Made by a program: the position numbers and the translations under genes
The notes under the pieces: generated by a model
Told to the model about the DNA's origin: nothing
Databases searched by the model: none
What the model saw: the letters and a program-made list of their open reading frames with translations, nothing else
In this document: piece after piece, positions 24,977-59,325 of the stretch
Position numbering within the stretch: position 1 is the stretch's first letter
Layout of the letters: each line of letters opens with the position of its first letter
From: an uncultured delta proteobacterium
Lineage (GTDB): Bacteria; Desulfobacterota; Binatia; Binatales; Binataceae
Assembly: GCA_963842085.1 (NCBI GenBank)
Contig: CAWJET010000001.1
Location: 2,944,001 to 3,008,000, forward strand
DNA: 64,000 bases
Reading direction: 5' to 3'

Positions 24977-26152
24977 TTACTTGGTCTCGCGCATTGCGCG
25001 CACCAGAATCGCCGCGAGCTCCGGGCGCGTGAATTCCGGCGGCGGCGCTTCCCCCGCGCGCAGCATCTCGCGGACTTTCGTGCCCGACAGTATCAAACGG
25101 TCCGCGTCGGTATGCGGGCAGGTCTTGAACGACGCCATCGCGTTGCATCGCTTGCAGTAAAAGGTGTTCTCGAACATCAGCGGCGTGATCCCGAGTTCCG
25201 CCGGCGCGAAGCGCTCGAAGATCTTCTGCGCGTCGTAGCTGCCGTAGTAACTGCCGACGCCGGCGTGGTCGCGCCCCACGATGAAATGCGTGCAGCCGTA
25301 GTTGCGCCGCGCGATGGCGTGCAGGATCGCCTCGCGCGGGCCGCCGTAGCGCATGTGCGCCGGGAACACGCCGATCATCGCGCGATTCTTCGGGTAGTAC
25401 AGGTCGAGCAGCACCTTGTAGGTCTCCATCCTGACCGCGGCGGGCACGTCGTCGCCCTTGGTCTCGCCGACCAGCGGATGGATCATCAGGCCGTCGCAGA
25501 TTTCCAGCGCCGCTTTCTGGATATACTCGTGCGCGCGATGGGTCGGGTTGCGGGTCTGGAAGGCGACGATCTTCTTCCAGCCACGCTCGCGGAACGCCGC
25601 GCGCGTCTGCCGCGGCTCGCGCGGAAATTCCAGGAACGTGCGCCCCGGTATCTCCTCGACCAGCGTGACCTTGCCCGCAATGCAGTACGGCGGCATCGAG
25701 GTGACGTTCTTCGCCCCCGGATGCGCATCCTCGGCAGTGCCGAACACGTTTTGCGCTTCTAGTTTGCGATCGACTTTGTAAATTTCCGCGAGCTTGAGAA
25801 TCGCCAGCCGCTTGCCGTCTTCGGTCGCCAGCGCGATCTCATTGCCCGTCTTCAGAGACTTCGCTGTCGCCTCATCGACGCCCAGCGTGATTGGAATCGA
25901 CCACGGTGCTCCCGACGCAAGGCGCATCTCGTCGCGCGAGCGTGTGTAATCGGCCTCGCCCATGAAGCCCGTCAGCGGCGAGAACGCGCCCGTCGCGAGC
26001 ATCTCGAGGTCGGCCAGGTCGCGCGCGTTGAGCGTGACGCTCGCGAGCTTCGCGGCATGCGCCGCCAGCGCAGCGCGCTCGGAGGCCGGCGCTTTCAGAT
26101 CGACCAGCTCGCCGCCGCCGTGCGCCCCGATTGCGTCGTCGCGCACGCTCAT
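24977..26152 (-). CDS. sat: Sulfate adenylyltransferase
   Basis: [41 protein letters not shown]. Confidence 0.95.
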
Positions 26153-26691
26153 CGCCGTCCTCCCCGGTTGATGTAGCTCAGCTCCTCGAGCCGCCCGATC
26201 AACTTGCCCAGGCTCTGGTCGACGGTTTCCACGCTGCTGTCGACGACCAGCTCGGGCTTCAGCGGCTCTTCGTACGGGTCCGACACGCCGGTGAAAGATT
26301 TGATCTCGCCGGCCAGCGCCTTCTTGTAGAGCCCCTTGACGTCGCGCTCGACGAGCTTGTCGATCGTGCAGCGCACGTACACTTCGAAGAAGCGGTCGTG
26401 CTTGCGGCGCACCTCGTCGCGAATCTCCCGGTAGGGCGAAATCGCCGCCGAAATCGCGATCACGCCGTTGCGCGACAGCAGATGGCACACGTAGCCGATC
26501 CGCCGGATGTTAATGTCGCGATCCTCCTTGGAAAAGCCGAGTCCCTTGGAAAGATTGGTGCGGACTTCGTCGCCGTCGAGGATTTCGACGCGATGCGCCC
26601 GACTGCGCAGTTCTTCGGCCGCCAGATTCGCAAGCGTGGATTTCCCCGCCCCGGACAGTCCCGTAAACCACAAGGTAAAGCCTTGATCCAT
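26149..26691 (-). CDS. cysC: Adenylyl-sulfate kinase
   Basis: [30 protein letters not shown]. Confidence 0.95.
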
Positions 26692-26710
26692 CGGCAAAAA
26701 CTGATGCTCC

Positions 26711-26800: not shown

Positions 26801-26881
26801 AACCGGAACCGGCTTCGCTGGCCCGAAGCTGTCCGAGATCCTTGCGCTGCGCTCGCGATGCTCGCAGCGTTCAGGATGACA
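26801..26881 (-). repeat. Family A element (reverse orientation); supplies the HAD gene stop codon
   Basis: rc: TGTCATCCTGAACGCTGCGAGCATCGCGAGCGCAGCGCAAGGATCTCGGACAGCTTCGGGCCAGCGAAGCCGGTTCCGGTT. Confidence 0.85.
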
Positions 26882-27560
26882 AGCCAGCGGGCAGGTTCAG
26901 TTGAATCGCAAGCGCGGCCGGTGAGCCGAAGATTTCGGCGGCGCCCGCCGCCAACAGTCGATCCCGCGCGCTATCGGTAGGCGCGATTCCGTAAAACCTC
27001 ACGCCGCAACTTTGCGCGGCGCGAAGGTCGGCTTCGCTGTCGCCGACGAATGCGGCCTCCGATCGATCGATGGAAAATACTTCGAGCGCGCGAATCAGCA
27101 TGTCGGGCGCCGGCTTGAGTCCGAGCAGTGTGTCGCGCCCGACGATGGCATCGACGCATGGGTGCCCATTTCTGTCGAACCAGCGCGCGACCGTTCTCGA
27201 GGAGTTGGACGTCACGATCGCGACTGCGGCGCCGCTTTGTTTCAATGCCGCCAGTGTTTCGACTGCTCCTTCGAGCGGCTGTGCGCGATCGACTCCCGCA
27301 AGCTCGATCTTCTCGATTATCTCAGAAGCATGCCGCAGTCGTTCGATGACCTCAGCTCCGTTGGCTTGTGCGAGCATGAGGGTGCGGTAGGCATCGTAGA
27401 GCGGGAGGTTGCCGCGCGGGATTCGCGCGAACAGTTCGTCGGGCGCGCCGATCGAGCGCAGGTAGGGCTCGAGGATGAGCCGGCCGCCCGCCCAATCGAC
27501 CTCGGGCTCGAGCCGCGCGATCGTGTTGTCGAAGTCGAACATCCAGAGCTTGTACATCAC
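26871..27560 (-). CDS. HAD-superfamily hydrolase (subfamily IA)
   Basis: FDFDNT, VTSN, KPAP, VGDSEAD. Confidence 0.88.
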   Translation of the reverse strand: MMYKLWMFDFDNTIARLEPEVDWAGGRLILEPYLRSIGAPDELFARIPRGNLPLYDAYRTLMLAQANGAEVIERLRHASEIIEKIELAGVDRAQPLEGAVETLAALKQSGAAVAIVTSNSSRTVARWFDRNGHPCVDAIVGRDTLLGLKPAPDMLIRALEVFSIDRSEAAFVGDSEADLRAAQSCGVRFYGIAPTDSARDRLLAAGAAEIFGSPAALAIQLNLPAGLSS

Positions 27561-28159
27561 GGATCGACGCGAACCCTGGTCTCATAGCCGTCGAACTCGA
27601 TTGTCGCGCGCGACGGATTTTCCGCGTATCCGGCGAGCAGCTTGAATGCTTCCGCCGTCGCGAGCATCGCGATAAAATCCGCGGCCTCCGAACGCGTGCC
27701 GACCGATGCAGGCATCGACGCGTCGACGGTTCGCCCGCCCTGGGTTCGGGGGATGACGATAATTTTTCCCGGCGCGTCGAGACGCGCGATCACCAATGCT
27801 GGCACATCTCGATTGTTCGCGATCTCATGTGCAACCTTCCGAGCCGAATCACTTCCGACAATCACGAATGCCAAATTAATGCGTCCTCGTGGTTCATTCG
27901 CGACGGTGACGGATACGTCGGCATTCAGTGCGCGCGCTTGTGCGATCTTCTCGGCGAATCCGGCTTCGTTGCCGGCTACTCGAACGCCTATCGCTCCAAC
28001 TCCCGCACCGACCAGGTACGCGAGCGGCGCTTCGATATCGCGCGCGTCTCCCGCCAGCAGCATCCGTGCGGCGAGCAAGCGTTCCTGGCCGCGGCCGCCG
28101 ACGCGCGGCACGATGATTTGCCGGCTGTAGCGATCGATTTGCGCGTCAGTCAGGGTCAT
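27557..28159 (-). CDS. Catalytically dead ThiF/MoeB-like (E1-like) protein
   Basis: Keeps RYSRQII..VGGRGQERL, LVGAGVG, ALNADVSV and the AEAFKLLAG dimer helix; lacks GxGxxG and SNLxRQ; contains no Cys. Confidence 0.75.
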   Translation of the reverse strand: MTLTDAQIDRYSRQIIVPRVGGRGQERLLAARMLLAGDARDIEAPLAYLVGAGVGAIGVRVAGNEAGFAEKIAQARALNADVSVTVANEPRGRINLAFVIVGSDSARKVAHEIANNRDVPALVIARLDAPGKIIVIPRTQGGRTVDASMPASVGTRSEAADFIAMLATAEAFKLLAGYAENPSRATIEFDGYETRVRVDP

Positions 28160-28174
28160 CGCACACGCGCACGG

Positions 28175-28420
28175 TCACTCGATCACGTTCTTTTCGATTG
28201 GCTCGACGGTGACTCCGGTGCTGCGCAACCAGGTCAGCGCGCGTTCGATCTGATCCGAGCTGCCTTCGAATTCGACGGCGACGAGTCCCATCTCCTCGGA
28301 CACGCTCGCGCCCCGAATATTGAAAACGAGGTCGAACTTCTTCACCAGCTGGTAAAGGATCGGCTCCTTGATCAGCGTGCGCGGATAGCTCAGGTAGTAG
28401 CGTTCGTGGATACGTTCCAT
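28175..28420 (-). CDS. Standalone NIL-domain protein
   Basis: KEPILYQLVKKFDLVFNIRGASV..GLVAVEFEG..ALTWLRSTGVTVEPI. Confidence 0.8.
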   Translation of the reverse strand: MERIHERYYLSYPRTLIKEPILYQLVKKFDLVFNIRGASVSEEMGLVAVEFEGSSDQIERALTWLRSTGVTVEPIEKNVIE

Positions 28421-28427
28421 TTGCGGG

Positions 28428-29501
28428 TTACTTCTTCTTCCACTTGGCGATGACTTGTTGCAGGCGCTCGCGACGCCATTCCTGCCATCCGATCCACAAA
28501 TTCGTCGACAGATATTTGTCGCCGAAGTCGGCGAACACGGTGACTATCGTGCCTTCGCGAATTGAGCGCGCGACCCTGAGCGCTGCGATCATCGCGGCCC
28601 CCGACGATTGGCCGACCAGGATGCCTTCGGTCTGCCCGAGCGCGTACACCATCTCGTACGCTTCTTCGGTGCCGACCGGGATTTTGTCGTCGAGCTGTTT
28701 TTCGTGATAGATGCCGGGTACGATCGAGCTCGCCATGTGCTTGAGGCCCTCGAGCCCGTGCATCGCGTCGTCCGGCTCGACCGCAATCACTTTGAGCGCG
28801 CGGTTCTTCGCTTTGAGAAACCTGCCCGTGCCCATCACCGTGCCGCCGGTGCCGATCGCCGCAACGAAATGGGTCACCTGGCCGCGCGTCTGGCGCCAGA
28901 TTTCCGGGCCGGTGGTCTCGAAATGCGCAATCGAGTTGGCCTCGTTGTTGTACTGGTCGGGCTTGAAGTAGCGCCCGGGGTTGTCCTCGATAAGGCGGCG
29001 GCACATGACGATCGCGCCGTCGGAACCTTCCATCGGATCCGAGAAATGAATTTTTGCGCCGTAAGCCTCGACGATTTTCTTGCGCTCGCGGCTCACGTTC
29101 GACGGCATCACCAGCTCGACCGGGTAGCCGAGCGTCGCACCAAGCATCGCCAGCGCGATTCCGGTGTTGCCCGAGGTCGAATCCAGGATCACCTTGCCTG
29201 GTTTCAGCTTGCCTTCGTTGATTCCCACCTCGAGCATTTTCTTCGCCGGCCGATCCTTGACCGAGCCGCCGGGGTTGAAGCCCTCGAGCTTGGCGAAAAT
29301 CCGCACGCCCGCGGGGATCAACCCCGCCGTCAGCCGGGTGATCTCCAGCAGCGGAGTATTGCCGACGAGATCGAGCACGCTGTTCGCGCGCCCAACCGGG
29401 ACGATCTCGCGGAGCGGCGCGACACGGCTGCCCGCGCTGTCGCGAGCGCCGGCGTCAGCGTCCGCCGGCAATCGCGGGAACGATTGAGATGTCGTCGCCA
29501 T
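28428..29501 (-). CDS. cysM: PLP-dependent cysteine synthase (CysM-like); start uncertain
   Basis: GNTPL, KLEGFNPGGSVKDR, STSGNTG, IGTGGT, GQSSGA, DFGDKYLS. Confidence 0.85.
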   Translation of the reverse strand: MATTSQSFPRLPADADAGARDSAGSRVAPLREIVPVGRANSVLDLVGNTPLLEITRLTAGLIPAGVRIFAKLEGFNPGGSVKDRPAKKMLEVGINEGKLKPGKVILDSTSGNTGIALAMLGATLGYPVELVMPSNVSRERKKIVEAYGAKIHFSDPMEGSDGAIVMCRRLIEDNPGRYFKPDQYNNEANSIAHFETTGPEIWRQTRGQVTHFVAAIGTGGTVMGTGRFLKAKNRALKVIAVEPDDAMHGLEGLKHMASSIVPGIYHEKQLDDKIPVGTEEAYEMVYALGQTEGILVGQSSGAAMIAALRVARSIREGTIVTVFADFGDKYLSTNLWIGWQEWRRERLQQVIAKWKKK

Positions 29502-29733
29502 CCTTTACCTTGGAATTGATCGCATCGAGGAAGCGGACGTCGTCGCCGTTGAGATAAATGTTGACGAAGCGGCGGATGTCGCCTTTTTCATCGAGCAGCC
29601 GCTCGCGTATTCCCGGATGGCGCCGATCGAGGTCTTCGATCACCGCCTTGATCGAAGCGCCGTCGGCCGGAACTTCGTCGACACCCGCGGTGAACCTTCG
29701 AAGTGGAGTTGGAACTCTGACGCGTACTGCCAT
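29455..29733 (-). CDS. MoaD/ThiS/CysO-family ubiquitin-like sulfur carrier with a C-terminal GG-R extension
   Basis: VPTPLRRFT..RRFVNIYLNGDDVRF..ISIVPAIAGGR*. Confidence 0.9.
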   Translation of the reverse strand: MAVRVRVPTPLRRFTAGVDEVPADGASIKAVIEDLDRRHPGIRERLLDEKGDIRRFVNIYLNGDDVRFLDAINSKVKDGDDISIVPAIAGGR

Positions 29734-29803
29734 GATTGGGGACTTGCCTCCTGATTGAATTGCTACACTTATGCCCGCCGCATAGTCCAAACAAGCGCCG
29801 CCG

Positions 29804-31072
29804 TTACGCCGCGCTGTCTGCGGTGCGTTTCCCATTGGTGAGCCGGTCGAACAACGCGTCGAAATCCTTCAGCCGCGCGTCGATGATCGACGGCTGCTCG
29901 ATCGCGTTGGCAACCGCCTCGAGCGTCTTGTAGCCGTTGCCGGTTATCGACACGACCACGGTTTCGTCGGCCTTGATGCGTCCCTGTTTGACCAGCTTGA
30001 GCGTGACCGCGAGCGTGGTGCCGCCGGCGGGCTCGGCGAAAATTCCCTCGGTGCGCGCGAGCAACTTGATCGCGTCGATGATCTCCGGGTCGGTGGCGAC
30101 GTCGCCCCATCCGCCGGAATCGCGCACCGCCTTGAGCACATAGAAGCCGTCGGCCGGATTTCCGATCGCGATCGATTTCGCGATCGTGTCGGGCTTCACC
30201 GGCGTTATCAGGTCAGTGCCCTTGTGCAGCGCGTGGATAACCGGCGCGGAGCCGGCCGCCTGCGCGGAATGAATCTTGAACTCGCCGCTCTTGATTAGCC
30301 CGACCTCCTTCAGCTCCTTAAATGCCTTCGCGACTTTCGGCAGAATCGTCCCGCCCGCGGTTGGCACCACGATATGGTCCGGCAGCCGCCAGCCGAGCTG
30401 CTCGGCGACTTCGAAGCCGAAAGTCTTTGCACCCTCGGTGTAGAACGGACGCAGGTTGATATTGACGAAGGCCCACCCGTACTTGTCCGCGATCTCGCTG
30501 CACAGCCGGTTGACGTCGTCGTAGTTGCCCCGAATCGTGATCACGCGCGCGCCGTAAATCGTCGAGCCGACGATTTTTCCCGACTCCACGCCTTCGGGCA
30601 TGAAGATGTAGCATTGCAGTCCCGCGCGCGCCGCGTGCGCCGCCACCGCCGTCGCCAGGTTGCCGGTCGACGCGCAGGATACGGTGGTGAAGCCGAACTC
30701 GCGCGCCTTGGTGATTGCCACCGACACGACGCGGTCCTTGTACGACAGGGTCGGATGGTTGACGGTGTCGTCCTTGACGTAGAGATGCTCGAGCCCGAGA
30801 TCCGCGCCCAGCCGCTTGCAATGCAGCAGTGGGGTGAAGCCGGAGTTGGGGCCGACGACCTCGTTCTCGTTGAAATCGACCGGCAGCAATTCGCGATAGC
30901 GCCACAGATTGTGCGGACGTCTCTCGATTATCGAGCGCGAGAGCGCCGCGCGAATCCGCGCGTAGTCGTAGGTGACCTCGAGCGGACCGAAGCACGTCTC
31001 GCAGACGTGGAGCGGGCTTATCGGATACTCCTGGCCGCATTCGCGACACTTCAAATTGGTGATGTAGCTCAT
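29804..31072 (-). CDS. Threonine-synthase-like PLP enzyme (possibly O-phosphohomoserine sulfhydrylase)
   Basis: N-terminal CRECG..CETCFG zinc knuckle; HPTLSYKDR, ASTGNL, EGAKT, EGIFAEPAGG, TGNGYK. Confidence 0.85.
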   Translation of the reverse strand: MSYITNLKCRECGQEYPISPLHVCETCFGPLEVTYDYARIRAALSRSIIERRPHNLWRYRELLPVDFNENEVVGPNSGFTPLLHCKRLGADLGLEHLYVKDDTVNHPTLSYKDRVVSVAITKAREFGFTTVSCASTGNLATAVAAHAARAGLQCYIFMPEGVESGKIVGSTIYGARVITIRGNYDDVNRLCSEIADKYGWAFVNINLRPFYTEGAKTFGFEVAEQLGWRLPDHIVVPTAGGTILPKVAKAFKELKEVGLIKSGEFKIHSAQAAGSAPVIHALHKGTDLITPVKPDTIAKSIAIGNPADGFYVLKAVRDSGGWGDVATDPEIIDAIKLLARTEGIFAEPAGGTTLAVTLKLVKQGRIKADETVVVSITGNGYKTLEAVANAIEQPSIIDARLKDFDALFDRLTNGKRTADSAA

Positions 31073-31089
31073 CGTTTCCTCGATTCCTG

Positions 31090-31797
31090 TTACTTGCCCG
31101 GCGCTTGCGCCTCGCGACGGTCGGGCTTCCACGCGCCGCAGCCGCATCCACGGCGCGGACTAACCGCCGCGATTCGCACCCGGGCCGGGCCGGACGCGTC
31201 GTACGTGAGAATTTTTCCTGAGAGCAACGGTGTTTGCGCGCGCATCGCGCGCATCGCCTCGGACGCCTGTATCTCGCCAATCGCGCCCGCGACCGGCCCG
31301 GCGATCCCAGCCTCGCGGCAACTCTGGATTTCGTCCTCATCGGGCGCCGTCTCGAACACGCAGCGGATACACGCCGTCTCGCCCGGGATCACCGTCATCG
31401 CCTGCCCGGTCATCCCGACCACGCCGCCATAAACGAAGGGCGTCCGCGCCGCGATACACGTGTCGTTGATCAAAAGTTTCGCGGCCGGACTGTCCGTCGC
31501 GTCGATAACAAAGTCGTGTGCGGCGACCAGACGCGCCGCGTTGGACGCGTCGAGCGCAACCGCATGCCGCTTGACGTTGAGGTCAGGAAACCGCTCGGCG
31601 AGCCATCGTGCGGCAGCGTCGACCTTGGGCGTGCCGATATCGACGGGACGATAAATCACCTGGCGCGCGAGATTAGACAGCTCGACCGGGTCCGGGTCGA
31701 CCAGTGTCATCCCCCGAGCACCGGCGCGCCCGAGCGCCCACGATGCGGGGACGCCAAGTCCTCCCAAGCCAACGATCAGTATTCGTTCCGTTGCCAC
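31090..31797 (-). CDS. ThiF/MoeB-family adenylyltransferase (E1-like) lacking the N-terminal arginine-finger helix
   Basis: GLGGLG, DPDPVELSNLARQ, DATD, CIRC, SCREAG; GTG start with GGGAGAGG RBS and an in-frame stop upstream. Confidence 0.88.
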   Translation of the reverse strand: MATERILIVGLGGLGVPASWALGRAGARGMTLVDPDPVELSNLARQVIYRPVDIGTPKVDAAARWLAERFPDLNVKRHAVALDASNAARLVAAHDFVIDATDSPAAKLLINDTCIAARTPFVYGGVVGMTGQAMTVIPGETACIRCVFETAPDEDEIQSCREAGIAGPVAGAIGEIQASEAMRAMRAQTPLLSGKILTYDASGPARVRIAAVSPRRGCGCGAWKPDRREAQAPGK

Positions 31798-31903: not shown

Positions 31904-32022
31904 GCCTTATCTTCCAGGAGACTCTCGCGCGGAGAACCCCTGCAGGAGTTAGCACCAGCACCCATCACGGGCCGGTTGCTGCGGCATCAGCGGGCCAGTC
32001 CCTCCGCCGCTCTCGATAAGGC
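31904..32022 (-). ncRNA. SAM-I (S-box) riboswitch
   Basis: rc: GCCTTATCGAGAGCGGCGGAGGGACTGGCCCGCTGATGCCGCAGCAACC...GGTGCTAACTCCTGCAG...CTGGAAGATAAGGC; P1 CTTATC/GATAAG and all S-box cores present; lies upstream of sulfur amino-acid genes. Confidence 0.92.
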
Positions 32023-56216: not shown

Positions 56217-57452
56217 TTAGCGCGCGGACGCCGCCGCGCTCGTATGTGACGTTTGTTCTGCATGCGCAGTTCCGTTTGCAGCCGCACCCAGACCGCAGAA
56301 TGCTTCGTAATCTATGAGCGTGGTTTGGGTGGGATGCTCGCTGCAGACGGGGCACTTCGGATCTTTGCGGATCTTCAGAATTCGCACGTAGTCCTTGTCC
56401 GACAGCGTGTCGAAATAAACCATCTTGCCAATCAGAGGAGACCCCGCGCCAAGAATCAGCTTGATCGCCTCGAGCGCTTCGATCGATCCGATCAATCCCG
56501 GCAATGCGCCGAGCACACCGGCTTCCGCGCACGACGGCGCCATGTCCGGCGGCGCCGGCTCGGGATACAGGCATCGGTAGCACGGTCCGCCCTTGGCCGG
56601 GTAGAAAACCGTGGTGTTGCCTTCGAAGCGGAAAATCGCGCCGTCCACCAGCGGCTTCTTCGAGAACACGCACGCGTCATTGATCAGGTATCGAGTCGGG
56701 AAATTATCTCCGCAGTTCACGACGACGTCGTAGTCCTTGATGATGTCCATCGCGTTCTCGGACGTCAGTCGCACGTCGTGACGAATCACCTTTATGCCCG
56801 GATTCAGCGCGTTGATTGATTTCTGCGCCGACTCCGTCTTGGGCATCCCGACGCGCTCGGTCGTGTGGATGATCTGCCGCTGAAGATTCGACATGTCGAC
56901 CACGTCGAAATCCACCAGGCCGATCGTGCCGACTCCCGCCGCCGCGAGATACAGCGCCGACGGTGAGCCGAGCGCGCCGGTGCCGAGCAGCAGCACCTTG
57001 GCGTCGAGCAGTTTGGCCTGTCCCTTTTCGCCGACTTCGGGGATTACGAAATGTCGCGAATAGCGCGTCAGCTCCTCGGCCGTGAACGCGCGATCCGCCA
57101 CCCATGGCAGGCCGCGATCCTTCCACGCGTTGAAGCCGCCCATCAAGTTGTACACATTTTCGTAGCCGAGCTCGCGCAGTGTGCGCGCCGCCAGCAGCGA
57201 GCGCGTGCCCGACGCGCACTGCAGAATGACCGGCGTCTTGTGGTCGGGGACTTTCTCCTCGATTCTGAGTTCCAGGAATCCGCGCGGAATCGCGACCGCC
57301 TGCGGAATATGGCCCTGCCGCCATTCGTCGCTTTCGCGCACGTCAACCAGCACCGTGCCGGGCTTGTCGATCATCCGGCGCGCTTCGTCGATATCGACTT
57401 GCTTAATCGTCGAGCGCGCTTCGTCGAGAATATTCTTCGAGGTTTTCGCCAT
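56217..57452 (-). CDS. moeB: Rhodanese-ThiF fusion (MoeZ/MoeBR-type sulfur-carrier adenylyltransferase/sulfurtransferase)
   Basis: N-terminal rhodanese (DVRE, CASGTRS); RYSRH, GTGALG, SNLQRQ, CYRC, SCAEAG, CPVC. Confidence 0.9.
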   Translation of the reverse strand: MAKTSKNILDEARSTIKQVDIDEARRMIDKPGTVLVDVRESDEWRQGHIPQAVAIPRGFLELRIEEKVPDHKTPVILQCASGTRSLLAARTLRELGYENVYNLMGGFNAWKDRGLPWVADRAFTAEELTRYSRHFVIPEVGEKGQAKLLDAKVLLLGTGALGSPSALYLAAAGVGTIGLVDFDVVDMSNLQRQIIHTTERVGMPKTESAQKSINALNPGIKVIRHDVRLTSENAMDIIKDYDVVVNCGDNFPTRYLINDACVFSKKPLVDGAIFRFEGNTTVFYPAKGGPCYRCLYPEPAPPDMAPSCAEAGVLGALPGLIGSIEALEAIKLILGAGSPLIGKMVYFDTLSDKDYVRILKIRKDPKCPVCSEHPTQTTLIDYEAFCGLGAAANGTAHAEQTSHTSAAASAR

Positions 57453-57542
57453 AAATTTCCCCGTCCGATCCGTCGGCGGAGTCAGTTTCAATATACAACT
57501 ATAACCACGCGCGCGAGTCACGCCCGACGGCGCCGCGGTCGG

Positions 57543-58028
57543 CTATCCGCCAATCATTCGATGCGATTCGACCAGCGTACGCATGAAATTGAGCACCTGC
57601 GCCGCATGTCCGCGCGGCATCACATCATGAAAGGCGCGGCGTACGCGAAGCTCGCCATCGAGCACGAAGGTCGAGCGCGCGGCTACCTTGCCATTGAGCA
57701 CGCCCAACGCGGCGGCCAACTTTCCGTCTTCGTCCGCGAGCAACATGAACGGAAGCGCGTGCTTCTCAGCGAACGCGCGATGACGCTCGACCGAATCCGT
57801 GCTCACGCCGACAACGACGCAATCCAGCGCATGGAACTGTTCCAAACTGTCGCGAAATTCCTTGCCCTCGACCGTGCAACCGGGCGTGTCGTCCTTTGGG
57901 TAAAAATAAACGACGAGGTTGTGGCCGCGAAAATCCTTCAGCCGGCGCATCTCGCCGCGAGCGTCCGGCAGCGAGAGCTCGAGCGCCGTCGAAAGATCCG
58001 GGATGCTGTTCGCGTCAGCCAGCGGCAT
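57543..58028 (-). CDS. bcp: Peroxiredoxin, BCP/PrxQ family
   Basis: YFYPKDDTPGCTVE, ARSTF. Confidence 0.88.
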   Translation of the reverse strand: MPLADANSIPDLSTALELSLPDARGEMRRLKDFRGHNLVVYFYPKDDTPGCTVEGKEFRDSLEQFHALDCVVVGVSTDSVERHRAFAEKHALPFMLLADEDGKLAAALGVLNGKVAARSTFVLDGELRVRRAFHDVMPRGHAAQVLNFMRTLVESHRMIGG

Positions 58029-59325
58029 GCGCTTCGGCCTCGGCCAGCGATCGCCGCTTGCTGAACTTGATCGCCGCGTTGTCGATGTTGATCGAGCACA
58101 GCGACCCGCACATCGTGCATACGTTGGAACCCGCCGCCTCGCTTTCTTCCTTGTAGCGGCGCGCCTTGTCCGGGTCCATCGCCATCGCGTACATGCCTTC
58201 CCAGTTGAGCGCCTTGCGGTATCGCGACATCTGGTCGTTCCAGACTTTCGCCGCGCGCACGCCTTTGACCAGGTCGCCCGAGTGAGCCGCGATTCGCGTC
58301 GCGATCACGCCTTCGCGCACGTCGTCGATATCGGGCAGCCGCAAATGCTCGGCCGGCGTCACGTAGCAGAGAAAATCGGTGCCCGCCGCCGACGCGATCG
58401 CTCCGCCAATCGCGCCGGTGATGTGGTCGTAGCCCGGCGCGACGTCGCAGGTCAGCGGCCCGAGCACGTAAAACGGCGCGCCTCCGCAGACTCGCTTCTC
58501 GAGCTTCACGTTGGCCTCGATTTGATCGAGCGGCACATGGCCGGGACCCTCGATCATCACCTGCACGCCCATCGCCCGCGCGCGCTCGGTCAACTCGCCC
58601 ATCAGCAACAACTCCGCGATTTGCCCGCGGTCGGTCGCGTCGCCCGTGGCGCCCGGCCGCAGCCCGTCGCCGATCGAGATCGTCACGTCATGCTCGCGCA
58701 GCACCGCGCAGACTTCGTCGAAATGCTCGTAGAGCGGATTTTCGTTGCCGGTGCGCTCGACCCACGCCGCCAGCATCGAACCGCCGCGCGAGACGATGCC
58801 CTCGATTCGCTGATGCCCGCGCAGCCGCTTCACGCTTTCGCGCGTGACGCCGCAGTGCAGCGTCATGTAGTCGACGCCCTGGCGCGCCTGCCGCTCGATA
58901 ACGTCGAGAAAGTACTCGGCCTCCATCTCCATGATCGAGCGCTCGGAGCCGAGCTGGTAGATCGGCACCGTGCCCAGTATCACCGGGCATCGCGACAGAA
59001 TCTCCGCGCGGATTTTGTCGAGGTCGGTGCCGGTCGAAAGGTCCATCACTGAGTCGGCACCGAAGCGGACCGCGGTGTAAAGTTTCCCGACTTCCTCTTC
59101 GATCAGCTGATGGAAGTTCGACGCACCGATATTGGCGTTGACCTTGGTGCGCAGGCTTTTGCCGATTCCGATCGCCCTGAAATCGTGATGAATATTGTGC
59201 GGGATCACGACCTCGCCGGTCGCGACCAGCGCGCGAATCTCTTCGGCGGTGAAACCTTCGTCCTCGGCAACTTCGGTCATCTGCCGGGTGATTATGTTTT
59301 TGCGGGCGGCTTCAATTTGCGTCAT
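58015..59325 (-). CDS. thiC: ThiC-family radical-SAM enzyme (phosphomethylpyrimidine synthase; Bza paralog not excluded)
   Basis: TKVNANIG, MDLSTG, IVSRGG, GDGLRPG, EGPGH, YVTPAEHL, CTMCGSLC. Confidence 0.85.
   Translation of the reverse strand: MTQIEAARKNIITRQMTEVAEDEGFTAEEIRALVATGEVVIPHNIHHDFRAIGIGKSLRTKVNANIGASNFHQLIEEEVGKLYTAVRFGADSVMDLSTGTDLDKIRAEILSRCPVILGTVPIYQLGSERSIMEMEAEYFLDVIERQARQGVDYMTLHCGVTRESVKRLRGHQRIEGIVSRGGSMLAAWVERTGNENPLYEHFDEVCAVLREHDVTISIGDGLRPGATGDATDRGQIAELLLMGELTERARAMGVQVMIEGPGHVPLDQIEANVKLEKRVCGGAPFYVLGPLTCDVAPGYDHITGAIGGAIASAAGTDFLCYVTPAEHLRLPDIDDVREGVIATRIAAHSGDLVKGVRAAKVWNDQMSRYRKALNWEGMYAMAMDPDKARRYKEESEAAGSNVCTMCGSLCSINIDNAAIKFSKRRSLAEAEAHAAG

Follow-up and report, generated by a model that had tools for sequence, protein, structure and literature searches.

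In the excerpts of the literature from which papers are cited here, MoeB and ThiF are symmetric homodimers, both subunits of which bind ATP and a carrier protein (PMC12355090). Other members of the E1-like group are asymmetric. In SAE1-SAE2 and NAE1-UBA3, an inactive adenylation-fold subunit joins an active one in a pseudo-symmetric dimer (PMC11354881, PMC12355090). The yeast ThiF-family enzymes for tRNA cyclic threonylcarbamoyladenosine (ct6A), Tcd1 and Tcd2, form a two-paralog heterodimer with one catalytic center, in which Arg59 of the inactive Tcd1 serves as an arginine finger for the active Tcd2, and Tcd2 depends on Tcd1 for its stability; Tcd2 gives no arginine finger to the Tcd1 site in the model of that paper (PMC13139853). 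BilD, from the Bil antiviral ubiquitination-like operons, is a bacterial E1 with inactive and active adenylation domains arranged as a pseudodimer (PMC11354881, PMC11601596). An active/inactive split is treated in the excerpted text of PMC11354881 and PMC12355090 as a feature of eukaryotic E1s and of single-chain BilD. Here, we describe two ThiF-type proteins, ThiF-A and ThiF-B, encoded by a cysteine and methionine sulfur operon of a soil bacterium, an uncultured delta proteobacterium of the GTDB class Binatia (family Binataceae; GCA_963842085.1). The operon lies in a window of 64,000 nucleotides (contig CAWJET010000001.1, positions 2,944,001 to 3,008,000 of the forward strand), by which we mean the whole stretch of DNA analyzed. 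We consider it likely that the two proteins associate in an asymmetric dimer of the ThiF/MoeB type that has only one active site. The closest ThiF-family precedent for such an enzyme is yeast Tcd1-Tcd2, the closest bacterial one is BilD, and the principle of asymmetry is not new.

Relative to Escherichia coli MoeB and ThiF (PDB 1JW9 and 1ZUD), the same fold and chemistry are expected, with a MoaD/ThiS-like carrier as substrate, and A and most B relatives (134 of the best 150) retain the Zn-type CxxC. In contrast to MoeB and ThiF, functions are divided over two genes, with A lacking the N-terminal helix and B lacking the nucleotide site. An earlier note on this DNA, made from its letters, had compared the pair with the SAE1/SAE2 or NAE1/UBA3 split. 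The division into active and inactive subunits holds up, as a predicted pairing, but the A/B pair is no member of that group: no Cys domain, ubiquitin-fold domain, or E2 accompanies it, with ThiF-A, at 235 aa, lacking both the catalytic Cys domain (FCCH/SCCH) and the ubiquitin-fold domain. The context is sulfur assimilation, and the origin appears independent, with B grouping with ThiF-type sequences of its own class. Tcd1 and Tcd2, unlike the A/B pair, are eukaryotic and membrane anchored and act on tRNA rather than on a carrier protein, and Tcd1 keeps most of its site, with one Arg missing, whereas ThiF-B has lost the entire nucleotide-binding loop. BilD is a single chain with a mobile Cys domain that conjugates a ubiquitin-like protein to proteins with an E2 in phage defense, while A and B are two small genes in a biosynthetic operon. 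The operon follows the same logic as mycobacterial CysO-CysM-Mec-MoeZ and Streptomyces MetM/MetO, with a MoaD-like carrier, CysM, a ThrC-like enzyme, and a ThiF-type activator; this pathway type, with a carrier, a ThiF-type ligase, a Mec peptidase, and MetM as a ThrC homolog, is outlined in the excerpt of GapMind 2026. In the CysO and MetM pathways, the activator is one MoeZ protein that includes a rhodanese domain, whereas here a helix-less A and a dead B are found with no rhodanese domain, and the JAB peptidase is encoded elsewhere in the genome. The same note knew of no description of such a pair. This stands in part: a literature search whose reach excluded the E1-like superfamily survey of Burroughs et al. 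and the MetM/MetO work of Hasebe et al. turned up no account of a bacterial ThiF pair encoded by two genes, one for an active and one for an inactive protein, and none of B-type proteins, but asymmetric ThiF-family enzymes as such are known from Tcd1-Tcd2 and BilD.

ThiF-A (31090-31797, minus strand) is a catalytically complete ThiF/MoeB-type adenylyltransferase without the N-terminal RYxRQ helix. The Pfam ThiF profile (PF00899) matched it with 210.6 bits against a cut-off of 28.1, with the match running from profile position 21 to 236, so that the N-terminal part is absent; the ThiF domain covers ThiF-A end to end, and neither A nor B contains a further domain. Residues 4-212 aligned to MoeB residues 32-238 (E value of 2.1e-37). 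By the offset of this alignment, Gly13, Arg45, Lys58, and Asp102 of ThiF-A correspond to MoeB Gly41, Arg73, Lys86, and Asp130, which are listed as adenylation-site residues (PMC12355090), and all four are invariant in 18 of 18 A orthologs. The translation holds DPDPVELSNLARQ, Lys58, DATD, CIRC, and SCREAG. Cys160 of the SCREAG motif is likewise invariant in the 18 orthologs and, judged by sequence, is a candidate for persulfide chemistry. The protein begins at the Rossmann strand from a GTG start codon, with GGGAGAGG about 10 nt before it. Only 14 open codons lie upstream of this GTG, and in the stretch from the riboswitch that heads the operon to the ThiF-A start, none of the three frames contains a [RK][YFW]xR[QH] motif. 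The N-terminal helix that carries the trans arginine finger was missing from every A ortholog examined.

ThiF-B (27557-28159, minus strand, 200 aa) presents the complementary picture. Its Pfam ThiF match reached 20.6 bits, below the cut-off of 28.1, and involved profile positions 1-49 alone, with MoeB and ThiF model matches over residues 2-59 only. RYSRQ occupies residues 10-14 and the dimer helix is kept, AGDARD stands in place of the GxGxxG P-loop, an 18-column gap falls where the DxDxVxxSNLxRQ loop belongs, the active-site Lys and Asp are lost, and the protein contains no cysteine. ThiF-B residues 3-58 aligned to MoeB 4-59 and residues 5-57 to ThiF 3-55; by these offsets, ThiF-B Arg13 is the counterpart of MoeB Arg14 and ThiF Arg11, both of which are named as arginine fingers (PMC13139853). 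An AlphaFold2 model of ThiF-B, built from an alignment of 22 relatives, had a mean predicted local distance difference test (pLDDT) score of 86.7 and a predicted template modeling (pTM) score of 0.85. Foldseek searches with this model returned Uba4, ThiF, and MoeB at E values of 1e-10 to 1e-9 and template modeling scores normalized to the query (TMq) of 0.72 to 0.75, and the inactive subunits SAE1 and APPBP1 further down at E values of about 1e-6. As modeled, ThiF-B appears to be a folded ThiF-type protein and no debris.

To follow the two proteins across genomes, we classified every ThiF-like frame of the retrieved loci by nine columns of the canonical profile: the finger Arg, three P-loop Gly residues, the ribose Asp, an Asn, Arg73, Lys86, and Asp130. 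Three states were seen, namely, the A-type '-GGGDNRKD', the complete 'RGGGDNRKD', and the B-type, in which 'R' is followed by degenerate letters or gaps. ThiF-A itself reads '-GGGDNRKD' and ThiF-B 'RGRE-----'. The sample comprised 74 genomes, that is, the genome of the window with 20 others and 53 covering most genera of a 101-genome draw from the class, a few genera among the 53 being sampled more than once. A helix-less A was found in 64 of the 74 genomes and a dead, helix-bearing B in 63 of these 64; in the sole genome with A and no B (G120, locus L143), the contig breaks off about 190 nt past A. These counts include an unpublished genome (G018, also G041; loci L023, L036, and L115), where the helix-less A is on a contig other than that of B, and without it the count is 62 of 63. 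B lies nearly always 2 to 4 kb downstream of A in the same operon. Nine genomes were retrieved by the position of A alone, before any B hit in them was known (G109, G065, G074, G100, G059, G102, G119, G094, and G117), and B was present in all nine, and one genome (G015) yielded only B, on a short contig. Within the genus, a true B-type match was found in 22 of 24 genomes, a tally in which alone the unpublished G023 is counted. The two genus genomes without such a match, G022 (82% complete; its hit was to its rhodanese-ThiF) and G024 (89% complete), do encode A, but the contigs concerned (2389 and 5297 nt) stop short of where B would lie, and both genomes were left out of the A and B counts. 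In G033, G075, and G082, neither an A-type nor a B-type match was found, the only ThiF lying in an open frame of about 410 aa.

In eight genomes, the same operon is headed by a complete first ThiF, and none of the eight contains a dead B. Seven of them (families f3, f14, and f16) lack a second copy in the locus, and the remaining genome, G029, has a second complete copy. Family f6 contains two different arrangements: two complete copies in G029 (L032), and in G104 (L137) a helix-less A with a B that reads 'RGGGDARKP', keeping the P-loop, Arg, and Lys and having lost the Asn and the catalytic Asp. A helix-less A and a dead B, on separate contigs, are also encoded outside the class, by a Magnetococcales genome in which the A frame opens 11 residues ahead of the P-loop. 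Recurrence in dozens of genomes argues that the A/B pattern is no product of chance. Because related genomes are not independent, we place weight on the pair having been kept together while B diverged below 30% identity and on the f6 states changing together.

The B gene is the fastest-evolving gene of the operon, with 48-77% identity within the genus compared to 64-87% for ThiF-A, and it is under purifying selection. Ratios of nonsynonymous to synonymous substitution rates (dN/dS; Nei-Gojobori method, 14 lowest-dS pairs each) ranged over 0.27-0.38 in B, out of 78 pairs, and over 0.17-0.29 in A, out of 45 pairs. The B frame is open in dozens of genomes and at least 16 families. A ThiF-B profile retrieved 262 clusters at E values of 1e-30 or lower among 1.84 billion representatives. 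The helix motif is seen in 148 of the best 150 cluster representatives, the other two being cut at the N terminus; none has SNLxRQ, 144 lack both the P-loop and SNLxRQ, and 134 have at least one CxxC. Of 172 aligned B-family sequences, 170 cover the column of Arg13 and all 170 have this residue; the neighboring residues are invariant or nearly so, and residues 1-30 are the best-conserved block. Source annotations of B-type proteins ('hypothetical protein', 'ThiF family adenylyltransferase', and 'adenylyltransferase/sulfurtransferase') are generic or wrong, since the nucleotide site is missing from these proteins. Tools that reconstruct pathways of cysteine and methionine synthesis would miss a two-subunit activator.

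Shrunken B proteins of 120-193 aa were found in 14 genomes of families f4, f9, f11, f12, f15, f17, and f19 (loci L133-L136, L146, L152, L156, L159-L161, L166, L167, L169, and L171). These forms keep the Arg helix, the Gly-rich loop next to it, the first Rossmann strand and helix, and the C-terminal helix of the interface predicted below, and they are without the C-terminal hairpin and the Cys pairs. This pattern is as expected of a subunit that dimerises and presents a helix. In two loci (L027 in G004, and L048), B and the downstream HAD gene share one open frame of about 400 aa, which could reflect a fusion or a missed stop codon.

We modeled the complex of ThiF-A (18-row alignment), ATP, and ThiF-B (22-row alignment) in three runs, with three controls. 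The interface score ipSAE (interaction prediction score from aligned errors) was 0.91 in the three runs, and the best control reached 0.01; the ipSAE mark that we applied is reached by 58 of 80 solved complexes and by 2 of 110 mismatched pairs. The runs agreed in at least 95% of contacts, with a partner pLDDT of at least 87. In the predicted complex, residues 6, 9-14, 16-18, and 20 of the B helix contact residues 40-41, 43-45, 47-48, and 50-51 of A, which is the region of its SNLxRQ loop, and B helix 158-173 packs on A residues 160-176. Conservation at the predicted interface positions of B was 0.562 compared to 0.402 elsewhere, with 2 of 10000 random sets as high. The same comparison beyond B residue 30 gave 0.492 compared to 0.356, with 3 of 10000 as high.

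Much of what the earlier note had claimed is borne out by these analyses. Both ORFs (open reading frames) lie on the minus strand where it had placed them; the start of ThiF-A at the Rossmann strand without a RYxRQ helix, its listed motifs, and the features of ThiF-B are those of the translations, the Pfam match from position 21, and the 18-column gap, and the loss of the A helix, which it had judged real, agrees with the short upstream frame and the lack of a motif up to the riboswitch. Its proposal of an asymmetric E1-like enzyme, with A as the active and B as the inactive half, for the MoaD-like protein encoded with them is supported by the comparative tests that were run, at the level of sequence and models: strict co-occurrence held apart from the sole miss at a contig end, B is not decaying by its dN/dS and its invariant Arg13, and the predicted complex passed its controls with the B helix against the SNLxRQ loop of A.

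In the mechanism that we favor, A would bind ATP and the MoaD-like carrier and adenylate the C-terminal Gly of the carrier, after an extra Arg had been removed from the carrier, perhaps by the single JAB peptidase of the genome. B, as a dead paralog, would keep the ThiF dimer interface and lay its N-terminal helix with Arg13 over the nucleotide loop of A, taking the place that is filled in homodimeric MoeB and ThiF by the helix of the partner subunit. Sulfur would then be added to the activated carrier, and the resulting thiocarboxylate would be used by CysM to form cysteine and by the ThrC-like enzyme to form homocysteine, with S-adenosylmethionine (SAM) repressing the whole operon via the riboswitch. 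Within this scheme, the sequence states, their distribution, the selection on B, and the gene context were observed directly; the physical pairing of A and B is a predicted one, and the position of Arg13 at the ATP site of A, the dependence of A on B, the downstream chemistry with its sulfur donor, and any roles of the NIL and HAD proteins are what we infer. The only other ThiF of the genome is a complete rhodanese-ThiF near thiC, which suggests that the A/B pair is specific to this operon.

Several points weigh against an obligate A/B enzyme. The arginine finger has been reported to be non-essential in MoeB and ThiF (PMC13139853, in the excerpt at hand), so A might work without the Arg of B, and this Arg alone may not make B necessary; the helix may act through packing or closure of the site instead of through Arg alone. 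Neither subunit contains a rhodanese domain that would explain the sulfur donor; candidates for this donor are a TusA-type protein, free sulfide, and Cys160 of A. The A ortholog of G117 (L171:4096-4890, minus strand) has Gly at the column of MoeB Arg73 (SNLQGQ), which is the sole A-type deviation at a catalytic column. For the complex prediction, the pass could stem from likeness to the solved MoeB and ThiF homodimers, our own alignments and the ligand depart from the conditions of calibration, and the score of 0.91 is that of A with B and does not bear on a preference for the heterodimer. The helix-less A genes may form one clade, so that much of the co-occurrence may reflect shared inheritance. 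Finally, the fusion of a Magnetococcales B homolog to TusA suggests a role that fits pairing with A and yet is the best support for the alternative considered next.

This alternative, which we regard as unlikely although the strongest of the competing explanations, holds that A works alone as a helix-less homodimer, like TcdA, and that B is kept for another job in the pathway, such as docking a sulfur donor, the carrier, CysM, or the NIL protein. The arginine finger, besides being non-essential in MoeB and ThiF, is absent from TcdA according to the excerpt of PMC13139853, the Magnetococcales fusion to TusA points to sulfur delivery, and both A and B lack a rhodanese domain. However, B is best preserved in precisely the helix that A is missing, as seen in the invariance of Arg13 and the top conservation of residues 1-30, and the shrunken B forms retain this helix together with the dimer helix. 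Loss of the helix from A and presence of a dead B also go together across the sampled genomes, with no dead B beside any of the complete first ThiFs. Furthermore, a docking role and a role as dimer partner are compatible with each other.

The Magnetococcales gene itself (L051:5995-6909, plus strand; its A is in L117) encodes a dead B fused to a C-terminal TusA domain (Pfam, 41.2 bits; cut-off, 28.6), suggesting from its sequence that an inactive subunit can carry a sulfur donor. A Nitrospinaceae genome of unknown completeness contains a dead B-like gene (L081:1693-2343, plus strand) on a 3353-nt contig, flanked by genes for a MoaD-like protein and for CysM, with a further CysM gene upstream; the A profile found only a rhodanese-ThiF in this genome.

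We also considered that B might partner another ThiF-family protein instead of A, such as the rhodanese-ThiF at 56217-57521, or form homodimers that regulate it. This seems very improbable. B does keep a generic ThiF dimer interface, and complex predictions are also passed by near relatives of a true partner, but in almost every genome examined the B gene sits inside the operon of A, and its stop codon overlaps the next gene. The rhodanese-ThiF has a helix of its own and all catalytic positions, so it needs no donor, and B is absent where the first ThiF is complete, though those genomes have a second ThiF-family hit elsewhere, with or without a rhodanese domain, in a frame of about 400 aa. That B is a functionless, decaying remnant of a duplicated ThiF gene is scarcely credible, as its fast evolution, its Pfam score under the cut-off, and its matches in two frames in three genus loci (G003, G006, and G020) are set against frames open across at least 16 families, the dN/dS of B, a near-invariant Arg13 region, and a confidently modeled fold, and as other operon genes are split in the same loci (HAD in G003, Sat in G006, and most genes in G020), which fits assembly indels over decay of B; on the dN/dS, open frames, and invariant residues, we rejected a pseudogene reading.

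The rhodanese-ThiF (56217-57521, minus strand), beside thiC (58015-59325, minus strand), is the sole other Pfam ThiF match of the genome. It carries a rhodanese domain at the N terminus, has a RYSRH helix of its own, lacks none of the catalytic positions, and presumably serves thiamine and molybdopterin synthesis.

An asymmetric A/B dimer would have arisen by gene duplication followed by complementary loss, with the helix lost from A and catalysis lost from B. The genomes contain five states: a single complete gene (f3, f14, and f16); two complete paralogs (G029); a helix-less A with a half-degenerate B (G104); a helix-less A with a dead B (most families); and a helix-less A with a B of about 120-190 aa that holds little beyond the helix, a Rossmann stub, and the dimer helix. 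In a tree of the A and complete sequences (67 rows, built by a quick method with support from the Shimodaira-Hasegawa-like approximate likelihood ratio test [SH-aLRT] only), the single complete ThiFs of f3, f14, and f16 formed their own clade (95*) outside the A group (94, not starred). Three state changes are needed on this tree, of which starred branches force only one, and it is compatible with a single loss of the helix. In a tree of B and complete sequences, from which most B rows dropped out, the only eight B rows with enough canonical columns grouped with the complete second copy of G029 at 92, unstarred, which gives only a hint.

It is conceivable, at somewhat less than an even chance in our judgment, that the living genomes of this class preserve the steps from a symmetric ThiF/MoeB homodimer to an obligate active/inactive heterodimer, as an independent, prokaryotic, and biosynthetic re-run of the origin of the inactive and active adenylation domains (IAD and AAD) of eukaryotic E1s. 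If so, the Magnetococcales dead subunit carrying TusA would parallel the accessory roles acquired by inactive E1 halves. If an ordinary biosynthetic E1-like enzyme is divided over two genes, it would provide a simple, tractable model, with small soluble subunits, no extra domains, natural intermediates, and hundreds of clusters. Such a model could show why and how E1s gave up one of two active sites and what a helix and Arg supplied in trans contribute, and the natural intermediates would make the origin of E1 asymmetry testable.

ThiF-A and ThiF-B belong to a minus-strand run of nine genes in the order ThiF-A, ThrC-like, MoaD-like carrier, CysM, NIL, ThiF-B, HAD, CysC, and Sat. A SAM-I riboswitch (S box) stands at its head (31904-32022, minus strand; Rfam RF00162, 89.8 bits against a gathering threshold of 44.4, E value of 1.4e-20, full model 1-108). 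The ThrC-like gene (29804-31147, minus strand) encodes a threonine-synthase-like pyridoxal phosphate (PLP) enzyme, a MetM-like candidate homocysteine synthase (NCBIfam PRK08197, 328.5 bits, residues 25-416; Pfam PALP). Its true start is probably near 31072, as the family match begins at residue 25 of the longest ORF. The MoaD/ThiS-like sulfur-carrier protein (29455-29835, minus strand) matched Pfam ThiS with 55.1 bits and NCBIfam TIGR01687 (MoaD family) with 50.0 bits against a cut-off of 49.5, over residues 37-125 of the longest ORF, and its C terminus is AGG followed by one Arg. Since the carrier ends in Gly-Gly-Arg, one residue must come off before activation. A single Prok-JAB match, a candidate JAMM/Mec peptidase for this pathway, was found in the genome (74.1 bits; G000:C2:964090-964395), on another contig and outside the operon.

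The CysM-type cysteine synthase (28428-29501, minus strand) matched TIGR01138 (cysM) with 366.5 bits (cut-off, 394.2) and Pfam PALP with 234.7 bits. Downstream of ThiF-B, the stop codon of which overlaps the next start by 4 nt, lie genes for a HAD-family phosphatase (26871-27560, minus strand; Pfam HAD_2, 81.6 bits), the adenylyl-sulfate kinase CysC (26149-26697, minus strand; NCBIfam PRK00889, 266 bits; cut-off, 244), and the sulfate adenylyltransferase Sat (24977-26488, minus strand; NCBIfam PRK04149, 537.8 bits; cut-off, 387), with the Sat match starting from residue 122 of the longest ORF. Judged from its genes, the operon is one for sulfate activation and a carrier-thiocarboxylate pathway to cysteine and probably to homocysteine. 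A MoaD/ThiS-like carrier with a C-terminal Gly-Gly is encoded beside CysM and the ThrC-like enzyme, as in a carrier-thiocarboxylate pathway, and the gene order is kept across the class. Pfam and NCBIfam searches found no rhodanese domain in ThiF-A or ThiF-B, so that neither is an activator of the MoeZ type. Among the operon ORFs and their Pfam and NCBIfam matches, there was no E2-like or E3 gene; nothing found points to protein conjugation, and the gene context is that of sulfur-carrier thiocarboxylation.

Among four metatranscriptome runs compared at 88% likeness, contigs of run X15 match the B region, and one of 573 nt spans the 5' end of B, the NIL gene, and the 3' end of CysM; such contigs are from relatives and cannot show transcription here, and they were not used as evidence. 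The NIL gene (28175-28420, minus strand) encodes an 81-aa NIL-domain protein (Pfam NIL, 56.7 bits). Across the class it tends to accompany the ThrC-like gene, with exceptions at L157, L158, L165, L168, L174, and L131, and within the genus no gene of the operon is more conserved, its full-length identity among those loci being 89-100%.

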